Position numbers and translations under genes: made by a program
In this document: piece by piece, positions 30,944 to 38,157 of the stretch
Position numbering within the stretch: the stretch's first letter is position 1
How the letters are laid out: every line of letters begins with the position of its first letter
DNA from: Candidatus Heimdallarchaeota archaeon
GTDB lineage: Archaea; Asgardarchaeota; Heimdallarchaeia; JABLTI01
DNA: 64,000 nt
Assembly: GCA_019058275.1 (NCBI GenBank)
Contig: JAHLVW010000099.1
Coordinates: 1-64,000 of the forward strand
Direction of reading: 5' to 3'
The notes under the pieces: model-generated
Database searches by the model: none
Told to the model about the DNA's origin: nothing
What the model saw: only the letters and a program-made list of their open reading frames with translations

Positions 30944-31024
30944 AAACAAAACTAGTTCCAACTGAAGGAACTAAAACCGGATGGAGGTAAACAAACTCCC
31001 ATCGTTGTAGAAGAAGGTTTTAAG
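30944..31024. repeat. Cassette-boundary repeat R1 (diverged)
   Basis: Core at 30973: aaaaccggatggaggtaaacaaactcccatcgttgtagaagaaggttttaag. Confidence 0.75.
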
Positions 31025-31222
31025 TGGGGGGAGAATACTAGAAATTTTCTTTTCTGAAATGTAGGCATTTAGTAATTTATTTTTTATTGTAAATCATAGT
31101 AAAAATTGTTCGGAACAGTTTCTAAACTATCATTAGAGATGTTTTAAAGAAAATAATGAGTATATATTATTCAAGAATTAAATAAAAAGAAGGCAAATTT
31201 AAAAAAAACATGAGGAAAAGAA

Positions 31223-32479
31223 ATGAGAGGTAAAAACTCGATCACTGTTTTGATGATAATATTATTTCTTTCGATAAATAGCTTACTAGTAGCTGGTTAT
31301 GATAATAATAGAAGTGAAAGTGCTAAACCAAATAATATAATGGTAACTTACGCTTCTATATTTAGTGTAAAAGATGATTATCTAATGATTTCAGATGATG
31401 TTATGATGGGTGGATCTCAACCAAGAGATTTTTGGATTTTAGATTATAGCAATCCAAACAAAACAGAAATCATCGGAGGATATCTCCTAAATTCTAGTGG
31501 ATATTTACTATCAATGAGCACTTTTGGTGATTTGTTATTCTTATTGTGCAAGTATGATGACCCCTATTATGCAACAGGTTTTGAAATTGTTAATATAAGT
31601 TCAATAGACTCTCCAGAATATTTAGGACATTACGTAGCAAACGACTCATATGGATGGTGGCATGATCCTAGATATAATAGTCTAGAATTACTTCGATTCA
31701 AAGATAATTACGTTTTTATGTATACATCGTTAGTAACTTCAGAAACTCAACAAATCAGAATTATTGATTGTCAAAATATGACTAATATAACAGAAGTTAA
31801 TACAATTGCATCCACAAATAGGATTTTAGATTTTGATATTAAAGATGATATTATGTATATCAACCAAGTAGAAAGCAAAATGGAGATGATTAATATAAGT
31901 GACATAACAAATCCAACCAAAATTTCTTCTTGGAATTCAACTGGTACCATAAGTATGGATATTTATGAAGATAGACTCTATTTATTCAACTTTGACGAAC
32001 GAAAATTAGATATTTATAGCTTAGAAAATGCTACAAATCCAGAATATATCACTACAATAGAAAAGGATGAAAATACCCAATTCTTTGTAACAAATCTAGT
32101 ATTCACAGATGAATATTGTTTTGTAATAAGTGAAGATATGGTAGATATTTTAGATATCTCAGATTTAACAATTTTAAATAGCTATAAAGTAGAAGATTAT
32201 ATTTTAGAAGATGAATATGGGGGCTTTTTCTACGGACAAGTAGGAAATGAAAAATTGTTTGTTGCTAGAGAGTCTAACAAATGGGGTTTAACCTTATTTG
32301 TAATAGGTTTTTCAGATATTAATAATTTAGAAACTTGGATACCATATTGGACACCAACATCTCCAATAGCAATAACTCCAATGATTTATGGAATAATCAT
32401 TAGCACTTGTTTGTTGACAAGTATGTTCATTAAGAAAATAGCTCAAAGAAAGGGAAAAACAAAGGAGAGGAAAGAATAA
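31223..32479 (+). CDS. Secreted LVIVD-like beta-propeller protein with C-terminal anchor (cargo 1)
   Basis: Repeats FEIVNISSIDSPEYLG, INISDITNPTKIS, IYSLENATNPEYIT. Confidence 0.75.
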   Translation: MRGKNSITVLMIILFLSINSLLVAGYDNNRSESAKPNNIMVTYASIFSVKDDYLMISDDVMMGGSQPRDFWILDYSNPNKTEIIGGYLLNSSGYLLSMSTFGDLLFLLCKYDDPYYATGFEIVNISSIDSPEYLGHYVANDSYGWWHDPRYNSLELLRFKDNYVFMYTSLVTSETQQIRIIDCQNMTNITEVNTIASTNRILDFDIKDDIMYINQVESKMEMINISDITNPTKISSWNSTGTISMDIYEDRLYLFNFDERKLDIYSLENATNPEYITTIEKDENTQFFVTNLVFTDEYCFVISEDMVDILDISDLTILNSYKVEDYILEDEYGGFFYGQVGNEKLFVARESNKWGLTLFVIGFSDINNLETWIPYWTPTSPIAITPMIYGIIISTCLLTSMFIKKIAQRKGKTKERKE

Positions 32480-32499
32480 CCACACAATGAATATATCAA

Positions 32500-32583
32500 A
32501 AAATACTTAGCTCAAAACCAATAACACAGAATTAAACTGGTCGGAGGTAAACCAGTCCACGTCGTGGGAAAAGGAAGTTAAAA
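32500..32583. repeat. Cassette-boundary repeat R2 (hairpin degenerate)
   Basis: Core at 32533: taaactggtcggaggtaaaccagtccacgtcgtgggaaaaggaagttaaaa. Confidence 0.8.
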
Positions 32584-32639
32584 TGTACAGATTTAAAATT
32601 CAGATAATTAAAAAAATAAAAGAAATATTCTTACTAGAT

Positions 32640-33146
32640 TCATTTAATATCTGAAGCTGATATAATAGCTTGAGTTGGAATATTTCGTAAGCAATGAGGA
32701 CAAAAACCTTTAGTTTTAATCCACTCAAAAAGATGTGTGAAATGTCCAATTGATTCACAAAGACTACATTTTCCAACATCATCTCCAAATGAGATAGGTA
32801 ACTTACAAACTATACATCTAAGTTTTCTTTTTCCACAATCTGAACAAAATTCACTATGCATATCGAGAGGATAACCACACCAAAAACAAGTTTGATGTTT
32901 TGATTCAGTATAATCTATATTTACAAGTTGGGAAGATGAATGAGTAATTAGTGAATCTTTAGTTTTTCTTTTCTTTACAAATAATAGAACAAAAACACCA
33001 ACTATAGTAAATAATCCAACAATAGCAATTATTGGCCAGGTGGATACATTTGGATTTCCTCTATTATAAAAGAAAGCAAAAATACCACCTAAAAGTGTTA
33101 GAATCAATCCACCAACAGTTACTGTTATTGCTTTATGATTAACCAT
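32640..33146 (-). CDS. Two-TM protein with zinc ribbon plus RING-like domain (cargo 2)
   Basis: CFWC..CSDC then CIVCKLPISFG..CSLC....H..H..EW....CPHC. Confidence 0.8.
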   Translation of the reverse strand: MVNHKAITVTVGGLILTLLGGIFAFFYNRGNPNVSTWPIIAIVGLFTIVGVFVLLFVKKRKTKDSLITHSSSQLVNIDYTESKHQTCFWCGYPLDMHSEFCSDCGKRKLRCIVCKLPISFGDDVGKCSLCESIGHFTHLFEWIKTKGFCPHCLRNIPTQAIISASDIK

Positions 33147-33230
33147 TATTTTCCTTCCTACTTTAATTCAAGCTAATATTCAGTTGATCAATAAAATAAA
33201 TTTAAACATAACTCTGGAAAATTGAATTAT

Positions 33231-36147: not shown

Positions 36148-37107
36148 TTAAATGAGCGTGAGTGCTCTTCTTGAGTTCTCTGTGATAACTTTATAGATGA
36201 TTTCCTGATCAATTCCTTCCTTTACACAGTACGGAATAAATGTATCAAAAAATGTAGCATATGGTCTCATATTTTGGTTCTTATTTTCTTCTCTGTTCTC
36301 TTTAATCTTAAAAGAACCTGAATCTTGACCAAATAGTAGCTGACTAATCAAACGCTCTTCTATTATTTTCCTTATAGCTGGAGGATATTTTTCAAAGGAC
36401 TCTGCACCAGCTATTCCGTCAAATTCTATCCACATTCCTTTCTTTGCAACTTCAAGTATTAATGAAACATCCATTTTTGCATCTGCATGAACCCAGATAA
36501 AATTATCAAAGGGTAAGTTCTCTTCCTCAAGAATTTTAAAAACTCGTTTTACACATGGTTCATTCAAAACATGGCATTGGATTCGAAGACCAGTTTCTAA
36601 ACTTGCTTTAATGGCTGCACGAAGTAGCTTATCTTGTAAAGGAAAAATTTCTCCTTCATCACCAAGAGCCATCTTAATGAAACCAGGTTTTGTTCCAGTA
36701 TTATCTATTCCTTCTTTAAATTCCTTTATCCAAATGGAAGCAATCTCATCAATTGTTTTTTCCTTAATATCTTTTGGAACACCTTTTCCTCTAACATTAA
36801 AACCATCCCATGCACCCGTACATGTGATAATATTCAATCCAGATTTTTTAGCACATTGCTTTAAAACATCTAAATCTCGACCAAGTCCAAAAGGAGTTGC
36901 TTCTACAATAGTTGAACATCCCTTATTTTTCACATCAATCAAATATGGTAAAACAAAATCAACGACCTCATCAGTTGTATATGTTTTCTCAACCAAGTTT
37001 ATACCATTCAAATCCACTAAAATATGCTCATGCATTAATGTTACACCTAAATCTTCTTCAGAAATAGGTCCTATTACAGTATTAATCATTACAGTCAATT
37101 CCCTCAA
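36148..37107 (-). CDS. Phosphotriesterase-family amidohydrolase (cargo 4)
   Basis: TVIGPI...LGVTLMHEH, TIVEATP.GLGRD, PGFIK, HAD, IEFD, GQD. Confidence 0.92.
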   Translation of the reverse strand: MRELTVMINTVIGPISEEDLGVTLMHEHILVDLNGINLVEKTYTTDEVVDFVLPYLIDVKNKGCSTIVEATPFGLGRDLDVLKQCAKKSGLNIITCTGAWDGFNVRGKGVPKDIKEKTIDEIASIWIKEFKEGIDNTGTKPGFIKMALGDEGEIFPLQDKLLRAAIKASLETGLRIQCHVLNEPCVKRVFKILEEENLPFDNFIWVHADAKMDVSLILEVAKKGMWIEFDGIAGAESFEKYPPAIRKIIEERLISQLLFGQDSGSFKIKENREENKNQNMRPYATFFDTFIPYCVKEGIDQEIIYKVITENSRRALTLI

Positions 37108-37176
37108 AATATCTATTTCTAAAGTGTTTCAGTAATATAAAATTATTCAGACCAATCTTGGATTAATAAATCAATA

Positions 37177-37260
37177 AAAAAACAGTCGCAAAACCAAAAG
37201 CACAGAATTAAACCGGACGAGGGCAAACCAACCCCTGTCGCGGGAAAAGGGGAGTTTAGA
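37177..37260. repeat. Cassette-boundary repeat R5
   Basis: Core at 37209: taaaccggacgagggcaaaccaacccctgtcgcgggaaaaggggagtttaga. Confidence 0.9.
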
Positions 37261-37391
37261 TGTTTGTATGTTCGATAAAAACTACTATTTTGTTCTTTCA
37301 CATCAAAATAGAACCCACGAATATGTATTCTTCTTTATCTTTAATTAAACAAAATTAGCAAAACAGTTACGACAAGATACTTATTACGAAT

Positions 37392-37751
37392 TTATTGCCA
37401 AAATCGAATTGCATCTTTTTGCAATATTAATAAAAAGTGTTGAGAGAGGTTATATTTCCATTCATCTAGCAAGTCTATTAGCCTAGGTTGAATGAAATTA
37501 ATAATTGCTGGTTCAATTGCTAAATAAATAACTTGAATTTTATGTTTTTTCCAGAGAAAGGTGAAATCCTTATCACGAGTAACAAAAACATAATTATTTT
37601 ATTTCACCATATTCGATAGCTCACAGTTCTTAATACCAGACCAACCTTCTGTTTGAACAGTAGTACAAAATAAACCATGATCGTCAAAAATTTTTTTGAG
37701 TTGTAGTGGAACGTTTTCATCTAGTAGAAACTTCACTTTCTTTAGAACCAT
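37392..37751 (-). pseudogene. DUF5615/Mut7-C-like PIN-domain toxin with in-frame TAA at 37599-37601 (cargo 5)
   Basis: Manual translation MVLKKVKFLLDENVP...GWSGIKNCEL...K*NNYVFVTRDKDF; overlaps the DUF433 gene end; not in ORF track. Confidence 0.85.
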
Positions 37752-37968
37752 AAATAACAACCTCACCTGCAATCATTTCTTTAGCATATGTGATTATCTC
37801 TTGAATATCTTCTCGAGTAATGGTAGGAAAATTTGCTAATATTTCTTCAAAGCTTTTTCCTTCTTTTAACCAATCAAGAATATCTAACACTAACACTCGA
37901 GTACCTTTAATGGTAGGTTGTCCTCCGCAAATCTCAGGATCGCGGACAATACGTTCAAATTTGCTCAT
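37717..37968 (-). CDS. DUF433 antitoxin (cargo 5)
   Basis: RIVRDPEICGGQPTIKGTRV...EEILANFPTITREDI. Confidence 0.93.
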   Translation of the reverse strand: MSKFERIVRDPEICGGQPTIKGTRVLVLDILDWLKEGKSFEEILANFPTITREDIQEIITYAKEMIAGEVVIYGSKESEVSTR

Positions 37969-38074
37969 ATGAATTCCACTCTAATATACTAATAAGCAAC
38001 TTGCCTTAAATTAATACCTTTCTTTTGCATAACAAAATTATTACGAGAGAGCAAAGAATAGGTTTGAACCCCAA

Positions 38075-38157
38075 GAAACAAAACTCAAAACCATTTTAGT
38101 CAAATCAAAACCGGACGAGGGCAAACCAGCCCCCGTCGCGGGAAAAGGGAGTTTAAA
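38075..38157. repeat. Cassette-boundary repeat R6 (closest to consensus)
   Basis: Core at 38107: aaaaccggacgagggcaaaccagcccccgtcgcgggaaaagggagtttaaa. Confidence 0.9.

Follow-up and report, generated by a model that had tools for sequence, protein, structure and literature searches.

Among the closest described systems are integrons, in which Asgard archaea are rich, and CALINs, which are clusters of attC sites lacking an integrase, together with the genomic islands that integrate at tRNA and tmRNA genes. Archaeal integrons have been described, with one CALIN, bearing a PLP-decarboxylase cassette, listed for the genus considered here (Ghaly et al., 2022; PMC9668308); that CALIN did not match the present repeats in relatives. 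The window, a 64,000-nt stretch of DNA from a family of Heimdall-type Asgard archaea (GTDB lineage JABLTI01), carries an array of six hairpin repeats beside a conserved leader (Table 1). The locus is best read as integron-like gene capture that does not use IntI, by a site design not previously described and linked to a probable small-RNA gene.

Table 1. Features of the repeat array and its leader, in window coordinates
Feature	Position	Strand	Remarks
R1 repeat	30944-31028	-	CM 70.8 bits; farthest copy from leader
R2 repeat, degenerate	32502-32588	-	CM 79.2 bits; 4/9 pairs broken
R3 repeat	33232-33318	-	CM 79.6 bits; 9/9 pairs
R4 repeat	35910-35996	-	CM 92.8 bits; hairpin 35948-35971
R5 repeat	37178-37264	-	CM 86.3 bits; hairpin 37216-37239
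R6 repeat, array-head copy	38076-38162	-	CM 96.6 bits; 9/9 pairs, one G·T
R6 5' part AAACTCCCTTTTCC	38154-38141	-	
R6 lower stem CCG	38141-38139	-	
R6 bulged C	38138	-	
R6 5' arm GACGGGGGC	38137-38129	-	
R6 loop TGGTTT	38128-38123	-	
R6 3' arm GCCCTCGTC	38122-38114	-	
R6 lower stem CGG	38113-38111	-	
R6 TTTT	38110-38107	-	
R6 tail	38106-38076	-	
Cassette A	30973-32532	+	418-aa gene 31223-32479 (+)
Cassette B	32533-33262	-	zinc-ribbon/RING-like membrane protein gene 32640-33146 (-)
Cassette C	33263-35940	+	SBP_bac_5 solute-binding gene 33912-35717 (+), Pfam
Cassette D	35941-37208	-	phosphotriesterase-family gene 36148-37107 (-), Pfam
Cassette E	37209-38106	-	DUF433 gene 37717-37968 (-), Pfam
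Conserved leader, array head	38163-38330	-	at least 5 sequence types across family
Leader palindrome TTCCG-N8-CGGAA	38289-38272	-	
Leader TATA-like box TTTTTTAA	38250-38243	-	
Leader hairpin P1	38220-38181	-	
Leader invariant CU-rich tract CCCCATAAACCTCTCTCCCC	38179-38160	-	

A hairpin on one strand

The six repeats are real hairpins of a single strand. A degenerate-pattern search of the window recovered exactly six copies, all in plus-strand orientation, against 0.00 expected from shuffles, and the hairpin folds from the opposite strand. All copies are intergenic, and the rest of the 4.12-Mb genome holds no further copy of the same type and one diverged copy, on contig C22. The hairpin consists of a 9-bp stem with a 6-nt loop and a 3-bp lower stem, CCG/CGG, beneath a one-base bulge, the lower stem being an addition to the 9-bp stem of the initial annotation; in R6 the final two C's of AAACTCCCTTTTCC (38141-38142) double as lower-stem bases. 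A pair table of the minus strand bears out the pairing originally described. R3, R4, and R6 pair at all nine positions, with two, two, and one G·T pairs, respectively, R1 and R5 each have a single A·C mismatch (R5 also has two G·T), and R2 is degenerate, with four mismatches. The loops of the window copies are TGGTTT or TTGTTT. The loop-closing pair is C-G in R4 and R6, T-A in R1 and R3, and T-G in R5, while pair 6 is G-C in R6 and A-T in R3, both of the R3 changes being compensatory; pair 3 forms a series from C-G through T·G (R3) to T-A (R1). The AAAC...GTTT bracket reported around the core is found in type-A copies but not in type-B copies, which end in CCTATTTT.

Larger sets of 45 copies, and then of 79 distinct copies, were assembled from relatives and metagenomes. 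In the latter the stem is fully paired in 47 copies on the minus strand and in one on the plus strand; no stem consists of Watson-Crick pairs throughout, and 74 copies retain one G·T or more. On the minus strand G·T pairs outnumber A·C mismatches 92 to 25, and a structure-blind MAFFT alignment gives 92 to 32. In the MAFFT alignment 646 cells are paired, compared with 629.6 ± 3.0 after shuffling (0/2000 shuffles reach 646). In the set of 79 copies both-sided changes occur in 72 cells, compared with 36.7 ± 5.1 (0/500 shuffles as high), although these shuffle figures, like the binomial ones, overstate the support because the copies are related and hence non-independent. Slid controls were 41-56% paired, against 81% at the true register. 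Covariation and strand bias are thus both present in the alignment of 79 distinct copies, and the proposal that selection acts on the folded minus strand is supported by both in the 45- and 79-copy sets.

The loop-closing pair of the larger set is C-G, T-A (U-A), or A-T (A-U), and the lower stem alternates between CCG/CGG and CTG/CAG. Loop length ranges from 2 to 8 nt overall and from 3 to 8 nt among leader copies, with sequences differing within one array. The wobble has been compensated to A-T in four haplotypes, in every one of which pair 7 has become a G·T or a mismatch; compensated copies carry another imperfection two or three pairs off, and the obligatory imperfection floats between pairs 4 and 7. 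The minus-strand hairpin is the stabler in 46 of 63 copies with DNA parameters and in 54 of 63 with RNA parameters, the difference between strands being 1.0 and 3.3 kcal/mol, respectively. Fold energies of single 91-nt copies are not unusual relative to shuffles, R6 excepted (z = -2.6), and the evidence for the hairpin is therefore comparative rather than thermodynamic. Leader copies are fully paired in 28 of 31 cases, with 33 G·T to 2 A·C; internal copies are fully paired in 19 of 48, have gathered 21 non-transition mismatches, and are the only ones to show the change at pair 3 from C-G through T·G to T-A. Such decay fits relics as well as active sites.

Cassettes and their breakpoints

Comparison of sequences among genomes indicates that the repeats mark the ends of swappable single-gene cassettes. 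The general unit comprises a short tail, one or two genes either way round, AAACTCCCTTTTCC, the hairpin, and CCGGTTTT, with no orientation bias among the genes (16 to 15). Cassette E follows the order tail, gene, 5' part, and hairpin, its boundaries being placed where homology between genomes breaks, and a relative of it sits after a different hairpin in a metagenome contig (L163). Homologs of cassette B are present in array regions of two other genomes; the gene of cassette C is antisense to the hairpin strand, and that of cassette A has no Pfam match. The repeat family is present in 9/10 genomes of the same genus and in the one further genome of the same family (1/1), and in none of about 89 other searched genomes of the class. 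Arrays elsewhere contain 3 to 8 or more copies, always co-oriented as in the window, and the repeats are limited to 1-5 loci per genome. Within one array they are mutually only 60-86% alike, with subtypes common to several genomes.

Close relatives differ in which genes lie between copies, and given gene units turn up again at other sites. One cassette, 98% identical between two genomes, occupies position 1 in G005 and position 4 in G007, the latter having three additional cassettes on the leader side of it. An unusual 5' part and a rare loop move between genomes with the upstream cassette, and tails with the downstream cassette; tail subtypes are common to several genomes and are mixed inside arrays. 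In seven junction comparisons homology stops at the end of CCGGTTTT or no more than about 15 nt away from it, and R6 and the syntenic copy of a related genome are identical as far as base 38107. Mapping whether the crossover falls at the GTTT end had been suggested as a check; the breaks fall usually at the hairpin foot, after CCGGTTTT on the minus strand. This place corresponds to the closely spaced AAAC box of the plus strand and not to the GTTT box with its 13-nt spacer. In a polymorphism between L131/L147 and L142/L164, a rare-loop hairpin is leader-adjacent in one allele and internal in the other. This calls for a crossover on the 5' side of the loop, or else for ordinary homologous recombination, so that not all breakpoints lie at one point. 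No circular cassette junctions or insertion events were observed.

The leader at the array head

What is new in this analysis is the setting of the array-head copy within a conserved leader with a TATA-like box, the hairpin P1, and a CU-rich tract. The leader is about 170 nt in length, is confined to one archaeal family at 1-5 loci per genome, and has its flank in conserved synteny, as expected for a chromosomal gene. All 35 of 35 leaders have the TATA-like box 24-32 nt ahead of P1, and it occurs almost nowhere else. P1 was found in 32/32 leaders of differing sequence, its structure kept by covarying changes where its sequence is not, and it has no strand asymmetry in energy. The invariant tract occurs in 12/12 family genomes and is restricted to the family. 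The best-kept hairpin copy is the leader's own, and the T-run 3' of the hairpin is weak or absent in some leader types, for example CCTTAAATT and CCCAAATT. The leader is not a tRNA and matched no family in Rfam; it is probably a small-RNA gene. Since the promoter-like box stands at the array-head copy only, a small RNA made from every repeat, one of the two roles initially proposed, is unlikely.

Models for the site and comparison with known systems

The chances are about even that the repeat serves an integron-like cassette system, one that does not use IntI, as an attachment site folded from the minus strand of the window. The array grows from the fixed chromosomal leader, with exchange mostly in the few bases directly 3' of the hairpin foot. 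The leader would encode a small RNA some 135 nt long, with the repeat hairpin as its 3' stem-loop; cassettes would insert precisely at the 3' end of this gene, each supplying anew the final ~50 nt of it together with a tail of ~30 nt. The obligatory G·T would let the minus strand alone fold well, the opposite strand having A·C there, and this asymmetry may give the site polarity, as extrahelical bases do in attC. For the cassette copies, slight preference is given to recombination on one folded strand of DNA, a reading for which the cassette boundaries were counted, and for the leader copy likewise to RNA-level selection. The recombining enzyme presumably acts in trans. No integron integrase was found in the genome (best score 38 bits, cut-off 265), no tyrosine recombinase within about 0.6 Mb of array loci, and no integrase gene in the cassettes. 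A conserved tyrosine recombinase of about 355 aa lies away from the arrays in each genome, and a serine recombinase is sporadic; no recombinase of any kind is linked to the arrays.

A possible, though doubtful, alternative is that only the RNA gene is targeted, the hairpin mattering solely as the 3' stem-loop of the small RNA. Cassettes would then be double-stranded mini-islands that enter the 3' end of the gene in the manner of islands at tRNA and tmRNA genes, whether by means of an integrase encoded elsewhere or because the ~80-nt segment in common permits homologous recombination, and internal copies would be decaying partial gene duplicates whose G·U pairs and compensatory changes were selected in RNA. 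The fixed position of the TATA-like box, the keeping of P1 as structure rather than sequence, the conserved synteny of the leader side, and the larger strand gap with RNA parameters (3.3 versus 1.0 kcal/mol) are consistent with this, as is the contrast between near-perfect leader copies (28/31) and decaying internal ones (19/48). One polymorphism also needs a crossover within a 27-nt identical 5' segment, and hairpins can thus move between internal and leader positions. Against it, the cassettes carry no integrase, the leader has no Rfam family, and most breakpoints lie at the hairpin foot, the place with the least flanking homology and one that homologous recombination would not favor. The pair 3 series is confined to internal copies. 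An imperfection that is obligatory, yet shifts in position between pairs 4 and 7, is easier to reconcile with discrimination between strands than with recognition of an RNA.

It is improbable that a tyrosine recombinase uses the repeat as a duplex core site (Xer/dif-like, or resembling pdif modules), with the arms as binding sites and the loop as the overlap region in which strands are swapped. The arms do form inverted repeats about a central 6 nt in most window copies, and the 355-aa recombinase of each genome would be at hand, but a core-type site requires a fixed, matching overlap, whereas the loop varies from 2 to 8 nt (3 to 8 in leader copies) and in sequence within one array. Most breakpoints moreover lie outside the loop, and a dyad bound by protein would be expected to show neither both-sided changes nor so strong an excess of G·T over A·C. 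CRISPR-like growth, in which the leader-proximal repeat is duplicated in place at each insertion and the repeats belong to the array, is very improbable: it would account for the anatomy of leader and co-oriented repeats, for the best copy being leader-adjacent and worse ones distal, and for the three extra leader-side cassettes of G007, but not for an unusual 5' part and a rare loop that travel with the upstream cassette, for tails that travel with the downstream one, for repeats only 60-86% alike in one array with subtypes found across genomes, or for the sporadic occurrence of Cas1, which most array-bearing genomes lack. An ordinary terminator or REP-like element with no part in gene mobility, suggested by a G+C-rich hairpin followed by T's on the minus strand and always intergenic, is hardly credible given a single repeat orientation among neighboring genes split 16 to 15, the restriction to 1-5 loci per genome, and intervening units that differ between close relatives and recur elsewhere.

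The proposed integron-like attachment site is compared here with several described systems. Like a CRISPR array, the locus has a leader with a promoter (predicted here), beyond which come hairpin repeats that share one orientation, are strand-specific, and contain G·U pairs, the best repeat adjoining the leader; unlike one, its "spacers" are whole genes of 0.4-5.7 kb, its repeats travel with the units, and no cas genes are linked. The subterminal hairpins of IS200/IS605 elements (the IS608 paradigm) and other HUH-nuclease sites are likewise imperfect and read from a single strand, with DNA cut or joined a few bases beyond their 3' side, and here too a site-to-site unit could leave as a single-stranded circle. 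However, five genomes of the genus yielded no Y1 HUH transposase, the left end is absent, and TnpB-like genes, though frequent, are unlinked to the arrays. As in tRNA and tmRNA islands, which integrate at the 3' end of the gene and accrete in tandem, the target resembles a gene for a small RNA with structure, each insert is bordered by a direct repeat of the 3' segment of that gene, and the intact gene stands at one end while far copies decay; here, however, the inserts are single-gene units of 0.4-5.7 kb without an integrase, the target belongs to neither tRNAs nor an Rfam family, and the usual breakpoint is just past the hairpin rather than inside the gene.

The likeness to attC sites and CALINs first proposed from the bracketing boxes persists as a functional one. 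Imperfect hairpin sites, all in one orientation, each terminate a cassette that mostly holds a single gene, structure is kept while site sequence varies, built-in imperfections mark one strand, exchange occurs at one foot of the folded site, new units adjoin a fixed insertion site, and a toxin-antitoxin-type cassette (DUF433) is present. The likeness does not extend to the canonical RYYYAAC/GTTRRRY boxes and symmetric R-L box layout, to IntI, which is absent from this genome, or to a cassette orientation bias, the genes here being divided 16 to 15. In place of the fixed extrahelical bases of attC, the site has a single bulge together with a G·T whose position floats. This wobble distinguishes the strand running from leader to cassettes, which corresponds to the integron "top" rather than bottom strand, and the insertion site holds a full hairpin copy in what is predicted to be a promoter-bearing structured leader.

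The repeat hairpin and its strand bias

Each of the six co-oriented repeats (R1 to R6) carries a hairpin best read on the minus strand of the window, hereafter the model strand. The minus-strand pair table of the initial annotation was reproduced position by position: R3, R4 and R6 are paired at all nine positions with the help of G·T wobbles, R1 and R5 have one A·C mismatch apiece, and the degenerate R2 has four broken pairs. The covarying pairs that it had listed were likewise recovered, the closing pair being C-G, T-A or T-G and pair 6 being G-C or A-T. An AAAC...GTTT bracket around the core, also proposed at that stage, is present in one repeat subtype and is not a feature of all subtypes. 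To this description can be added a lower stem of 3 bp (CCG/CGG) beyond a single-base bulge. Over the whole set of copies the bulge is C, T or A, and the loop is of 2-8 nt with a sequence that varies inside single arrays. Fold energies of single window copies are unremarkable, R6 excepted, and single-sequence thermodynamics was set aside as uninformative evidence.

Searching the window with a degenerate pattern of the repeat core yields six copies, each on the plus strand, against 0.00 expected from shuffles, plus one further match with three mismatches that is attributable to chance; repeat finding in the window recovers the identical six, spaced 730-2678 bp apart. Filter-free covariance-model searching for degenerate copies beyond R1, the repeat farthest from the array head, gave none that was convincing, the best scoring 16.7 bits at 29580-29653. 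A search of the whole assembly (4.12 Mb, 118 contigs, 93% complete) found no additional repeat of this type outside the window, and one diverged copy lies on contig C22. A genome-wide REP-type element was rejected because the genome has only these six copies and one diverged locus. With one genome scanned per species, repeated or multi-copy pattern matches are confined to two Asgard MAGs, 'Ca. Heimdallarchaeota CSMAG_1263', which has three copies within 6 kb, and 'Promethearchaeati HMA_bin2.83' (JABLTI01 as accession prefix); the remaining 46 are single chance matches in bacteria. A covariance model built from the six window copies, read on the model strand, matches nine of the ten genomes of the same genus as well as the family's one further genome, and none of approximately 89 genomes from other families of the class. 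Arrays in other genomes are co-oriented and hold 3 to 8 or more copies.

A larger alignment had been named as the test of both covariation and strand bias, and both hold in an enlarged set of 89 copies, 79 of them distinct, drawn from the loci of relatives and one metagenome scan. The 9-bp stem cells of the 79 distinct copies comprise 567 Watson-Crick pairs, 92 G·T, 25 A·C and 22 other mismatches. Full pairing is seen in 47/79 copies on the model strand and in 1/79 on the opposite strand; at least one G·T occurs in 74/79, and an all-Watson-Crick stem in none. The 5' arm is nearly always GACGGGGGC and the 3' arm is GCC[CTC/TCC/CCT]GTC, so that the wobble position floats within pairs 4-6. In four haplotypes the wobble has been compensated to A-T, and in all four pair 7 carries a new G·T or a mismatch. 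Closing pairs are C-G (46 copies), U-A (11), A-U (5) and U-G (5). Paired cells amount to 81.4%, compared with 77.7 ± 0.5 in shuffles and 41-56% in slid controls, and both-sided changes to 72 cells, compared with 36.7 ± 5.1, neither value being reached in any of 500 shuffles; such statistics overstate independence because the copies are kin, and the distinct pair types and wobble positions are separate events despite that kinship. Strand bias and covariation were reproduced in a structure-blind MAFFT alignment. Mean hairpin stability is -6.8 kcal/mol on the model strand versus -5.8 on the opposite strand with DNA parameters, and -15.7 versus -12.4 kcal/mol with RNA parameters.

The earlier proposal that the folded minus strand is under selection thus finds support in the strand bias and the compensatory changes of the larger set. 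That the fold is kept by selection is well supported, as is the retention of its imperfection (G·T on the minus strand, A·C on the plus strand). The wobble would let one strand only fold well, and in this way would set the polarity of the site.

Cassettes and exchange boundaries

The five inter-repeat intervals of the window contain one gene each, on either strand, and this layout of tandem, co-oriented sites around mostly single-gene units recurs in six other arrays. Units are 0.4-5.7 kb in size, and gene direction relative to the hairpin strand is the same in 16 cases and opposite in 15 across 13 arrays. Accessory contents include FG-GAP/TSP3 and LVIVD surface proteins, an aspartyl protease with TPR repeats, a Ras-like GTPase, a short-chain dehydrogenase and a methyltransferase. 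Two cassette genes are of eukaryote-signature type. The FG-GAP/TSP3 gene next to the window leader has the same placement in the syntenic relative L036; the NTPase_1 and cupin genes, which adjoin the leader in other genomes, lie beyond it in the window.

Features and their coordinates (window positions unless a contig or an array locus, L, is named)
Feature	Position	Strand	Remark
Repeats R1 to R6	30944-38162	+	R6 at the array head
C-rich tract 5' of R1	31029-31050	-	TTCTCCCCCCAC
Cassette gene: 418-aa protein		+	No Pfam match
Cassette gene: zinc-ribbon/RING-like membrane protein	32640-33146	-	Eukaryote-signature type
Cassette gene: SBP_bac_5 protein		+	
Cassette gene: phosphotriesterase-family protein		-	
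Cassette gene: DUF433 protein	37392-37968 region	-	DUF433 domain confirmed (Pfam)
Leader	38163-38330	-	
Palindrome TTCCG-N8-CGGAA	38272-38289	-	~20 nt upstream of TATA-like box
FG-GAP/TSP3 surface-protein gene	38461-40155	-	Immediately upstream of leader
Relatives of the FG-GAP/TSP3 gene	L093:4625-6673; L092:8613-10451		Ordinary in-array cassettes
666-aa Ras/Roc GTPase-domain protein	L092:14577-16577	-	Cassette gene, eukaryote-signature type
Second leader of the window's genome	C22:147331-147545 (L108:6332-6545)	-	Type B, single hairpin
Type-A leader with extra hairpin	G006:C60 (L101:6765-6900 region)		26 nt, ATGTATC...GATACAT
Alleles with and without a 1.9-kb cassette	L131:391-700, L147 vs L142:3893-6097, L164		One metagenome series

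All-against-all BLAST of the array loci reveals the same cassettes in differing contexts across genomes. A 2-kb unit found at array position 1 in the related genome G005 recurs at position 4 in G007 with 98% identity. It is preceded by a different hairpin in each, identity starting ~11-13 nt past the stem; the repeat downstream has in both genomes the same unusual 5' part (GTTAATCTTACTATCC) and the same rare loop, and there identity ends directly after CCGGTTTT. Similarly, the window and L036 are 85% identical over 2.5 kb spanning the flanking gene, the leader and R6, and divergence is complete past base 38107, the final T of CCGGTTTT. When all copy pairs were compared systematically for their upstream segments, 5' parts, hairpins, tails and downstream segments, five more junctions had the boundary at or shortly past the hairpin foot. 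In seven comparisons homology ends after CCGGTTTT or within ~15 nt of it, with one exception. This only case not fitting a crossover at the 3' foot concerns a hairpin with a rare loop (ATGA) that is leader-proximal in L131 and L147 and internal in L142 and L164, 1.9 kb further on. Its placement requires exchange 5' of the loop, for example by homologous recombination through the 5' segment, which is identical over 27 nt.

From these breakpoints the exchanged unit is [tail, gene(s), 5' part, hairpin]. That the repeats are the boundaries of mobile cassettes is well supported, and the 3' foot of the model-strand hairpin appears to be the usual, though not the invariable, place of exchange.

The leader at the array head

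On the model strand the array-end copy, R6 in the window, is preceded by ~170 conserved bases. These leaders belong to at least five sequence types built from a common set of parts. A TATA-like box starts 24-32 nt before the hairpin P1 in 35/35 leaders and is otherwise nearly absent within 8-75 nt. P1 itself, of 9-13 bp, varies in sequence by leader type with its pairing kept (arms AGAGGTTTAGG/CCTAAGCCTCT, GGAGAGCAA/TTGCTCTCC, GGAGAGTAA/TTACTCTCC and GGAGAGAAA/TTTCTCTCC, for example). An invariant tract, CCCATAAACCTCTCTC(C/T)C, is also present, as is AAACTCCCTTTTCC with the repeat hairpin after it. Both P1 and P2 are conserved in structure; misalignment of P1 across leader types kept RNAalifold from recovering more than part of P2, and P1 was therefore judged by folding leaders individually. 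The invariant tract occurs in 12/12 genomes of the family, at 1-5 loci each, and in 388 other genomes of the phylum only as two one-mismatch matches, which are read as chance. The leader side of the arrays is syntenic and its genes are housekeeping-like, namely NTPase_1 and cupin for type A, AMMECR1 and Mut7-C for type B. Several genomes have a leader with one repeat only. Hairpin copies at leaders are fully paired in 28/31 cases, with 33 G·T and 2 A·C, and internal copies in 19/48, where 59 G·T stand beside 23 A·C and 21 other mismatches; the pair 3 series from C-G through T·G to T-A is restricted to internal copies.

Growth of the array from a leader that is fixed, structured and promoter-bearing is well supported. 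Judged from sequence, the leader is probably the gene for a small RNA of ~135 nt, of which the repeat hairpin would form the 3' stem-loop; if confirmed, it would be a new archaeal non-coding RNA family. Some leader types have a poor T-run past the hairpin. Rfam yielded nothing across the whole window at gathering thresholds, and at E ≤ 10 only chance snoRNA and miRNA matches of 14-20 bits over 37900-38600; no tRNA or tmRNA was found in the window. A conserved small peptide gene opposite the leader, on the plus strand, was rejected, the frame in the window reading ATG GGG TAG.

Several further features of leaders deserve mention. The second leader of the window's genome, on contig C22, adjoins AMMECR1 and Mut7-C genes syntenic with those of relatives; the gene after it encodes a PAS-domain protein, differs among genomes and resembles, at 69%, a homologue far along an array in G005. 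The C-rich tract 5' of R1 resembles the end of the leader invariant, CTCTCCCC-TATTTAAAC, and may be what is left of an old leader junction. In a type-A leader of the related genome G006 an extra hairpin sits between the invariant tract and the repeat 5' part, and the spacing from tract to repeat is therefore tolerant. The palindrome listed in the table is kept in all type-A leaders and in no other type; it may bind a regulator or act as terminator for the gene upstream.

Searches for an exchange enzyme and comparison with known systems

IntI (TIGR02249) is not found in the window's genome (93% complete), where the best match scores 38.2 bits against a cut-off of 265. Five genomes were searched for IntI, Phage_integrase, Y1_Tnp, Resolvase, Cas1 and TnpB, and nothing linked to arrays was found. 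Tyrosine recombinases, one of them a conserved protein of ~355 aa, are present in every genome searched, and none lies on the window's contig, the array contigs or any array locus retrieved; tblastn of the window genome's own six against all array loci also found nothing linked. Y1 HUH transposase (PF01797) occurs in 0/5 genomes of the genus, a serine recombinase in the window's genome only, and Cas1 in 2/5, unlinked to arrays. TnpB-like genes with a Cas12f1-like_TNB domain number 2-12 per genome in the window's genome (G000), G005, G007, G009 and G010 and are not array-linked. Cassettes contain no recombinase genes, their contents being accessory enzymes and surface proteins.

The proposed mechanism would comprise site-specific exchange at the hairpin foot by an unlinked enzyme, with the leader as an RNA gene. 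The substrate could be folded single-stranded DNA, as with attC, a reading in which the crossovers at one hairpin foot would have a place. Alternatively, the fold could be relevant in RNA only, with integration duplex-based as at tRNA genes; the probable small RNA of the leader and the near-complete pairing of leader copies are compatible with it, and the att sites of islands at tRNA or small-RNA genes differ from the present ones in that the inserts here come without their own integrase. A duplex core site is disfavoured because the loops span 2-8 nt; the Xer/dif core needs a fixed centre of 6-8 bp identical in both partners, whereas the loops here vary. The movement of repeat parts along with cassettes speaks against in-place duplication of repeats.

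There is a substantial chance that the mechanism is new. We tentatively consider, as a possibility that falls short of probable, an undescribed gene-capture platform of Heimdall-type Asgard archaea, in which the leader RNA gene would be the insertion point, a cassette-borne copy of its 3' hairpin the recombination site, and the enzyme unrelated to integron integrases and acting on one folded strand, with cargo that includes eukaryote-signature genes (Ras-like GTPase, RING-type protein). Such an enzyme might be RNA-assisted or of HUH type, or might even consist of the leader RNA and a protein partner.

Full-text searching of the literature found no description of the repeat or the leader. IS200/IS605 elements have end hairpins and a Y1 HUH transposase, which was found in none of the five genomes searched. 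CRISPR arrays have short spacers and repeats made in place by a Cas1-Cas2 integrase; here the units hold genes and the repeats travel with them. Integrons, defined by IntI and attC, are the textbook prokaryotic means to stockpile and swap single genes. Like integron or CALIN arrays, the window has tandem, co-oriented hairpin sites around mostly single-gene cassettes (six copies, five units) and crossover at one foot of the folded site, the one exception apart. An attC site has paired R''/R' boxes (RYYYAAC ... GTTRRRY), a symmetric arrangement of R-box, spacer and L-box, and extrahelical bases on the bottom strand. The present repeats do not have these boxes: the 5' edge has an invariant AAC, the 3' box of type A is GTTTTGA, GTTTAAT or GTTTTCG and that of type B is CTATTTT, and the outer AAACTC/GAGTTT pairing holds in 65% of cells. 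Their spacing is asymmetric (10-12 nt on one side, 0 on the other), one variable bulge and a G·T that floats over pairs 4-7 stand in place of fixed extrahelical bases, and the strand that folds well is the analogue of the top strand, whereas attC folds its bottom strand. Integron cassettes are mostly co-oriented with their array, unlike the nearly even split found here, and an integron integrase is absent both near the array and from the rest of the genome. The element belongs to an integron-like system that falls outside integrons proper.

Integrons do exist in archaea and are enriched in Asgard MAGs (Ghaly et al. 2022, PMC9668308); they show canonical attC folds and an IntI, and their cassettes lie 'generally in the same orientation'. 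The same study tabulates a 2-attC CALIN with a PLP-decarboxylase 'cassette' for a MAG of genus JABLTI01 (Ghaly et al. 2022, PMC9668308). None of the present repeats occurs at the PLP-decarboxylase loci in 11 relatives, so that the tabulated CALIN is probably something else, and its 'cassette' corresponds to core genes in relatives. Judged from those loci, it probably differs from the repeats described here.

The outcome is integron-like, hairpin-bounded single-gene units being swapped between genomes, and it is found in Heimdall-type Asgard archaea, of the archaeal class closest to eukaryotes. The sites are designed differently, no integrase is linked, orientation follows no rule and insertion takes place at an apparent small-RNA gene. 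If confirmed, it would provide a concrete route for accessory and eukaryote-signature genes among Asgard archaea, a second, independent cassette-capture architecture beside the integron, and a clean natural case of strand choice by a floating G·T wobble in place of extrahelical bases.
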